NCBI RefSeq assembly: GCF_044324785.1
Contig: NZ_CP172127.1
Length of the DNA: 64,000 nucleotides
Reading direction: 5' to 3' (one strand)
Origin: Escherichia coli
GTDB taxonomy: Bacteria; Pseudomonadota; Gammaproteobacteria; Enterobacterales; Enterobacteriaceae
The position numbers and the translations under genes are program-made. Position 1 is the stretch's first letter. Each line of letters begins with the position of its first letter. A model generated the notes under the pieces. It ran no database searches. It was not told the DNA's origin and was given only the letters and a program-made list of their open reading frames with translations. Of this stretch, positions 62,516-63,468 are shown one piece after another.

Positions 62516-62691
62516 TCAATGCTTCACAATATACATAGTCCGACTGTACGCCACATCTTCAGGGTTATTAATGGGATAACCTTTCAGCCACGGCTTGATT
62601 AATCGTCCATTGGTATATTGATAAATTGGTGCAATCGGTGCTTGCTCCATGAGGATTTTTTCTGCCGCATTGTAATCGGCATTACGCGCTT
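62516..62691 (-). pseudogene. mppA: mppA 3' fragment (murein tripeptide-binding protein), separated from the 5' part by IS1
   Basis: Minus-strand frame encodes ...ARNADYNAAEKILMEQAPIAPIYQYTNGRLIKPWLKGYPINNPEDVAYSRTMYIVKH*, continuing the reading frame broken at the IS1 junction. Confidence 0.85.
62683..62691. repeat. target-site duplication (left copy) TACGCGCTT
   Basis: Identical 9-mer directly flanks both IS1 ends (also 63460-63468). Confidence 0.9.
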
Positions 62692-62746
62692 GGTGATGCT
62701 GCCAACTTACTGATTTAGTGTATGATGGTGTTTTTGAGGTGCTCCA

Positions 62747-63022
62747 GTGGCTTCTGTTTCTATCAGCTGTCCCTCCTGTTCAGCTACTGACGGGGTGGTG
62801 CGTAACGGCAAAAGCACCGCCGGACATCAGCGCTATCTCTGCTCTCACTGCCGTAAAACATGGCAACTGCAGTTCACTTACACCGCTTCTCAACCCGGTA
62901 CGCACCAGAAAATCATTGATATGGCCATGAATGGCGTTGGATGCCGGGCAACTGCCCGCATTATGGGCGTTGGCCTCAACACGATTTTACGTCACTTAAA
63001 AAACTCAGGCCGCAGTCGGTAA
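62747..63022 (+). CDS. insA: IS1 InsA
   Basis: 91-aa product [40 protein letters not shown]... Confidence 0.95.
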
Positions 63023-63444
63023 CCTCGCGCATACAGCCGGGCAGTGACGTCATCGTCTGCGCGGAAATGGACGAACAGTGGGGCTATGTCGGGGCTAAAT
63101 CGCGCCAGCGCTGGCTGTTTTACGCGTATGACAGTCTCCGGAAGACGGTTGTTGCGCACGTATTCGGTGAACGCACTATGGCGACGCTGGGGCGTCTTAT
63201 GAGCCTGCTGTCACCCTTTGACGTGGTGATATGGATGACGGATGGCTGGCCGCTGTATGAATCCCGCCTGAAGGGAAAGCTGCACGTAATCAGCAAGCGA
63301 TATACGCAGCGAATTGAGCGGCATAACCTGAATCTGAGGCAGCACCTGGCACGGCTGGGACGGAAGTCGCTGTCGTTTTCAAAATCGGTGGAGCTGCATG
63401 ACAAAGTCATCGGGCATTATCTGAACATAAAACACTATCAATAA
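62941..63444 (+). CDS. insB: IS1 InsB reading frame (expressed as InsAB' by -1 frameshift)
   Basis: 167-aa frame overlapping insA; canonical IS1 organisation. Confidence 0.9.
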
Positions 63445-63459
63445 GTTGGAGTCATTACC

Positions 63460-63468
63460 TACGCGCTT
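63460..63468. repeat. target-site duplication (right copy) TACGCGCTT
   Basis: Same 9-mer as 62683-62691. Confidence 0.9.

Follow-up and report, generated by a model that had tools for sequence, protein, structure and literature searches.

We analysed a 64-kb stretch of Escherichia coli DNA (hereafter the window), towards the end of which the gene mppA was observed in two pieces on either side of a complete insertion sequence. In annotated E. coli genomes mppA is found between ynaI and pgrR. The same arrangement was observed here, with ynaI at 61434-62465 of the window and pgrR following mppA in E. coli AVS0973 (contig L001), in contigs L002 and L016 (described below) and in E. coli N3, the nearest complete relative. 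The 3' fragment of mppA (62516-62691, minus strand) comprises the last 55 sense codons and the stop codon (62516-62518), includes the left copy of a 9-bp target-site duplication and is identical to the mppA 3' end of contigs L002-L004. Next to it lies a complete IS1 of the IS1A type (62692-63459, plus strand, 768 bp), beginning with GGTGATGCTGCCAACTTACTGAT, ending with ...ATCAATAAGTTGGAGTCATTACC and oriented opposite to mppA. The 5'-proximal part of mppA follows at 63460-64000 (minus strand) and holds codons 303-482. The mppA start lies beyond position 64000, where the window ends, and thus only the last 235 codons are present while the first 302 and the promoter fall outside.

The IS1 had been described in an earlier reading made from the letters alone (the sequence-only reading) as a complete 768-bp element with inverted repeats, insA, insB and an A6C frameshift site, and each of these features was recovered from the sequence. 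The terminal inverted repeats, IRL (62692-62714, plus strand) and IRR (63437-63459, minus strand), are imperfect and 23 bp long; by script the reverse complement of the right end, GGTAATGACTCCAACTTATTGAT, was identical to the left end at 18 of 23 positions. IRL overlaps a promoter-like site (62699-62726), located where a weak insA promoter overlapping IRL has been described (PMC12428005). The insA gene (62747-63022, plus strand, GTG start) encodes the repressor and DNA-binding protein of 91 aa, identical to K-12 InsA. It is joined to the 167-codon insB frame (62941-63444, plus strand) by a programmed -1 frameshift at the A6C slippery motif AAAAAAC (62998-63004, plus strand; IS1 position 307), giving a computed InsAB' of 232 aa. 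This protein matched the NCBIfam model NF033558 (transpos_IS1) across the full model (1-199) with 243.2 bits, the cut-off being 100 bits. The general description of IS1 is of a 768-bp element with inverted repeats at both ends, insA and insB, the A6C frameshift and a duplication of 8 or 9 bp (PMC12428005). Copies annotated as IS1A family, on numerous chromosomes and plasmids of E. coli, matched all 768 bp of the window copy at 100%; the plasmids bearing this identical variant are large and conjugative (about 120-155 kb). With intact ends and the same protein sequences as the active K-12 type, the element is presumably a standard, transposition-competent IS1.

A perfect 9-bp target-site duplication had also been claimed, and we observed TACGCGCTT on both sides of the element, with the left copy at 62683-62691, an identical right copy at 63460-63468 and exactly 768 bp between them. 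The insertion junctions are represented by the 30-mers CGGCATTACGCGCTTGGTGATGCTGCCAAC and GGAGTCATTACCTACGCGCTTTAACGGTAT. The chance of a given 9-mer recurring at a fixed position is about 4e-6, but a chance origin of the repeat is made irrelevant by alleles in which the site is empty and the 9-mer present once. Three contigs with such an empty site, found by look-up of the neighbouring YnaI protein, were examined: L002 (Logan SRR27151381), L003 (GCA_044691745.1) and L004 (GCA_044688645.1). All three aligned to window positions 57434-62691 and 63460-64000 with 0 mismatches in 5,258 + 541 bp (100%), and on each the two flank alignments overlapped by exactly nine bases, the single copy of the 9-mer. 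These contigs carry the same haplotype with an empty site, differing from the window solely by the IS1 and one copy of the 9-mer, and with their identical flanks they show that the insertion was precise and simple.

Short-read data provided further support for the junction. A Logan contig, L016 (SRR31073010; two samples), matched window positions 63432-64000 at 100% and ended 28 nt into IRR, the pattern expected of a repeat-induced contig break. This contig is independent short-read support for a real junction, although window and contig may derive from one strain. The disrupted allele could also have been imported by homologous recombination, or could be an artefact of assembly, instead of having arisen by transposition in this lineage, a view to which the mosaic similarity of the region to other E. 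coli (below) lends some weight. Against import, empty-site alleles of this haplotype match the flanks over 5.8 kb with 0 mismatches, from which it follows that the insertion arose on this haplotype; against misassembly, the duplication is perfect and a read-set contig carries the same junction. We consider either of these origins exceedingly improbable and retain transposition in place.

The identity of the interrupted gene was examined using both the window and the empty-site allele of L002. According to the sequence-only reading the mppA frame enters the right end of IS1 and resumes in frame on the other side, and this was borne out: the minus-strand frame runs into the right IS1 end and continues in frame to the native C-terminus (...YSRTMYIVKH*) at 62516. 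The insertion adds 768 + 9 = 777 nt (3 x 259), so both pieces of mppA share one frame. Excision in silico of the IS1 and one copy of the duplication, proposed earlier as a check for an intact MppA of 537 aa, restored an open frame, in the window a C-terminal part of 235 codons; the length of 537 aa was obtained only by way of the L002 allele. These 235 codons are included in the L002 allele at 100% DNA identity. As for the remaining 302 codons and the promoter, we infer from L016, perhaps another strain, that they are intact here.

Compared with the mature MppA of PDB 3O9P_A, the 537-aa allele scored 1171 bits with 3 substitutions over 515 residues, while OppA structures scored about 530 bits against the same reconstructed allele. 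Its best NCBIfam match was the model for OppA, NF011684; the score of 635 bits fell short of the cut-off of 947, as would be expected of a paralogue, and no MppA-specific model was present among its NCBIfam matches. Ala-274 (Glu in OppA) and Arg-402 are essential for murein tripeptide binding (PMC3173086). Arg-402 was readable in the window-encoded sequence ...DSRNTGNFDVIRASWVGDY..., together with Arg-411, Ser-413, Val-415 and Asp-417; Ala-274 (precursor residue 296) falls outside the window and is present in L002, the allele with identical flanks. On these comparisons we identify the interrupted gene as mppA, which encodes the murein tripeptide-binding protein, a paralogue of OppA.

The reading frame of mppA is broken after codon 482 and full-length MppA is not encoded in the window. 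Reading into the IS1, the frame runs through ...TVKAR, then through one further Arg codon that spans the junction, and ends inside IRR at a TAA codon (63455-63457). The predicted product is thus MppA 1-482 plus one Arg, or 483 aa in place of 537 aa, with 55 C-terminal residues lost; this exact truncated protein was called on one Logan contig (SRR31073010). In mature numbering, domain 2 of MppA spans residues 264-486, and domain 1 ends with a segment made up of residues 487-515 (PMC3173086). The break follows mature residue 460, so that residues 461-515 are missing: the final 26 residues of domain 2 and all of the third domain 1 segment, with the second inter-lobe crossover among them.

Retention of function, whole or partial, by the 483-aa protein would make the insertion phenotypically silent, and two features speak for it. 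The published ligand contacts (Lys-20, Gln-267, Arg-402, Arg-411, Ser-413, Val-415 and Asp-417; PMC3173086) all lie before the break, so that every residue reported to touch the murein tripeptide is kept, and the loss amounts to only about 10% of the protein. What is lost, however, includes both the crossover between the lobes and, in domain 1, the third strand segment (mature 487-515). Substrate-binding proteins of cluster C need both hinge connections for their closing motion, which counts further against a functional product, as does the calling of a similar 496-codon truncation in E. coli PEC1012 as a pseudogene by PGAP. We therefore regard retained function as very unlikely. The truncated MppA is likely a null or severe loss-of-function allele, because its fold would be incomplete, lacking the end of domain 2, the crossover and a segment of domain 1. 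The earlier statement that the insertion abolishes tripeptide uptake is plausible on this same structural ground. Peptidoglycan recycling by way of AmpG is a route distinct from MppA/Opp (PMC10622912), and for this reason only the MppA/Opp route would be affected: the cell should no longer take up and scavenge free peptidoglycan peptides through MppA/OppBCDF, and AmpG recycling should be unaffected.

Effects on neighbouring genes appear unlikely. The stop codons of the convergent genes ynaI (62465) and mppA (62516) are separated by a hairpin at 62476-62505 with a perfect 13-bp stem and a 4-nt loop (-22.1 kcal/mol, z -8.1), probably a transcription terminator shared by the two genes. This hairpin was not listed by a simple terminator scan, probably because no T-run follows it. 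A polar effect of the insertion would not be expected since mppA is the last gene before this strong hairpin and ynaI is convergent. The orphan 3' piece of mppA holds an ATG-initiated ORF of 44 codons (MEQAPI...IVKH; 62516-62650, minus strand). Where mppA is disrupted this ORF is annotated as a separate hypothetical protein, e.g. WP_367603830.1 in PEC1012, which is an annotation artefact.

The insertion was absent from all 5,426 complete RefSeq E. coli genomes, and a 120-bp probe for the empty site was uninterrupted in 5,415 of them. Five complete records covering the whole query (H1-H5) were considered as the same event and set aside, the match in each spanning about 2.5 kb in three pieces. 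All five have an IS1 no more than about 1 kb from mppA; in the one inspected, AVS0973 (H1, L001; NZ_CP124471.1), it is a copy of the IS1B family (L001 3276-4043) sited between pgrR and an intact mppA. Literature searches for an mppA::IS1 allele or an mppA pseudogene returned nothing specific, only a CTX-M-15 insertion in the mppA of ST131 and, in Shigella sonnei, a missense change.

The proposal of the sequence-only reading that the transposition was recent is probably correct, given the perfect duplication, the 0 mismatches over 5.8 kb and the absence of the insertion from the 5,426 genomes; the 100% identity of the IS1 copy to many other copies was also counted toward recency. The insertion is thus probably both recent and restricted to one lineage, where recent is meant in a relative sense, as zero divergence over 5.8 kb bounds the age loosely.

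The further suggestion of an IS1-rich lineage was not supported. This IS1 is the only insertion sequence in the 64-kb window, and when the chromosome of N3 was matched with the IS1-containing query a single place was found, the syntenic one, with no IS1 match elsewhere. A single insertion says nothing about IS1 copy number. A plasmid could equally have been the donor of this IS1, because large conjugative plasmids commonly carry the identical element.

Across its full 64 kb the window is collinear with N3 (98.5-98.7% identity), the IS1 being the sole inserted element. Similarity of the region is mosaic, at 97.4% to most E. coli genomes and about 99% to N3. Within window positions 1-25000 (hglS-trg-aldA-hrpA-ynbABCD-ydbD) identity was about 97.4% to the other genomes listed and 99.1% to N3, and N3 alone reached at least 99% among 5,422 matching records, a rare haplotype.

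Apart from mppA, every other large ORF in the window is intact. A Shigella origin, which the IS1 and the lack of an identical complete E. coli genome had suggested, was rejected on the grounds of the collinearity with N3 and of these intact ORFs, some of them frameshifted in N3. The genes aldA (7104-8585), nifJ (37335-40865), a DHA2 MFS efflux gene (49285-50799) and abgB (55225-56742) are full-length in the window and frameshifted in N3; the frameshifts are probably sequencing errors or real pseudogenes of N3 and not features of the window. We also observed a tandem array at 27902-30781 (294-bp unit, 9.8 copies, 95% matches) inside an uninterrupted minus-strand ORF of 2,585 codons (23777-31531). 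The corresponding region of N3 contains one additional repeat unit, and the gene is split there; its annotation is that of a beta-strand repeat-containing protein beside an autotransporter beta-barrel pseudogene.

In the course of events that we propose, an IS1 of the IS1A type would have moved by simple insertion into the region of codons 480-483 of the chromosomal mppA, in an E. coli lineage otherwise carrying an intact gene. Staggered cleavage of the target followed by repair would have left TACGCGCTT as a 9-bp direct repeat. Translation of mppA would now run through the duplicated target, add an Arg at the junction and stop at the TAA, 3 nt inside IRR, and the resulting 483-aa product would be unable to fold or close properly. 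The cell would in turn lose high-affinity uptake of free murein tripeptide by MppA/OppBCDF and keep AmpG recycling. As the whole explanation, we give a probability of roughly 93% to this simple insertion with a truncated null or severe allele and loss of MppA/Opp uptake. An IS1 that knocks out a known gene which is not essential is a textbook case. As a clean and datable event the insertion may mark one E. coli sublineage and be used for strain typing, and the allele may be used as a natural mppA null, for which no MppA/Opp scavenging of free murein tripeptide and an intact AmpG route are predicted.

Compared with the IS1A and IS1E copies of K-12, the 'consensus' active IS1, the window element has the same 768-bp length, inverted repeats, insA/A6C/insB layout and 9-bp duplication, at another chromosomal location. 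InsA and InsAB' do not differ from the K-12 IS1A proteins; relative to the IS1A of MG1655 the element has 2 nucleotide changes (IS1 positions 262 and 687), both silent in the frames used. The reconstructed allele of 537 aa matches the crystallised E. coli MppA (PDB 3O9P, 4TOZ), which works with OppBCDF, in its mature sequence apart from the 3 substitutions, and carries Ala-274 and Arg-402; the gene in the window is interrupted after codon 482.

A second IS1 in mppA was observed in E. coli PEC1012 (NZ_CP161338.1; L007 3200-3985, contigs L007 / L015). As in the window, an IS1A-family element with a 9-bp duplication lies in the 3' part of mppA and leaves the same orphan 44-codon ORF, and RefSeq annotates mppA as a pseudogene. 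The PEC1012 element differs in being 17 bp further downstream in the sense of the gene, in the opposite orientation and with the duplication TACAACGCG; its IS1 has 3 mismatches and the flanking haplotype an identity of 96.9-98.5%. We take the PEC1012 insertion, from its position and sequence, to be an independent event. In an ST131 C2 sublineage a chromosomal blaCTX-M-15 is reported to be inserted in mppA (PMC8386418). A mobile element has there too disrupted mppA in a natural lineage, but it is another element and carries a resistance gene.

These parallels, namely the independent PEC1012 IS1 at a distance of 17 bp with the duplication TACAACGCG and the ST131 C2 insertion, could be read to mean that disruption of mppA is positively selected, or that the mppA 3' end is a hot spot for IS1, and not a neutral accident. 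In an ldcA mutant, toxic recycling is reported to be suppressed when MppA/Opp is lost (PMC10622912), which points in the same direction. However, the 120-bp site is broken by an insertion sequence in only 1 of 5,426 complete genomes and none shares the allele, two events among thousands of genomes fit chance, and the local AT content (52-56%) is barely over the window mean of 51%. An apparent hot spot at 62650-62652, where contigs L008-L014 all end, was rejected as a selection artefact of the exact-sequence look-up, because only contigs ending there yield exactly the 44-aa partial product. Selection or a hot spot is unlikely. We hold as slightly less probable still the fuller proposal of convergent knock-outs, in which the mppA 3' end would be a recurrent target of mobile elements and loss of MppA adaptive in some niches, e.g. 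via altered muropeptide scavenging or release or via antibiotic tolerance. Under the preferred reading of a simple IS1 insertion, the window allele joins the PEC1012 and ST131 cases as one more observation that E. coli can do without mppA in nature and that mobile elements occasionally strike the gene.
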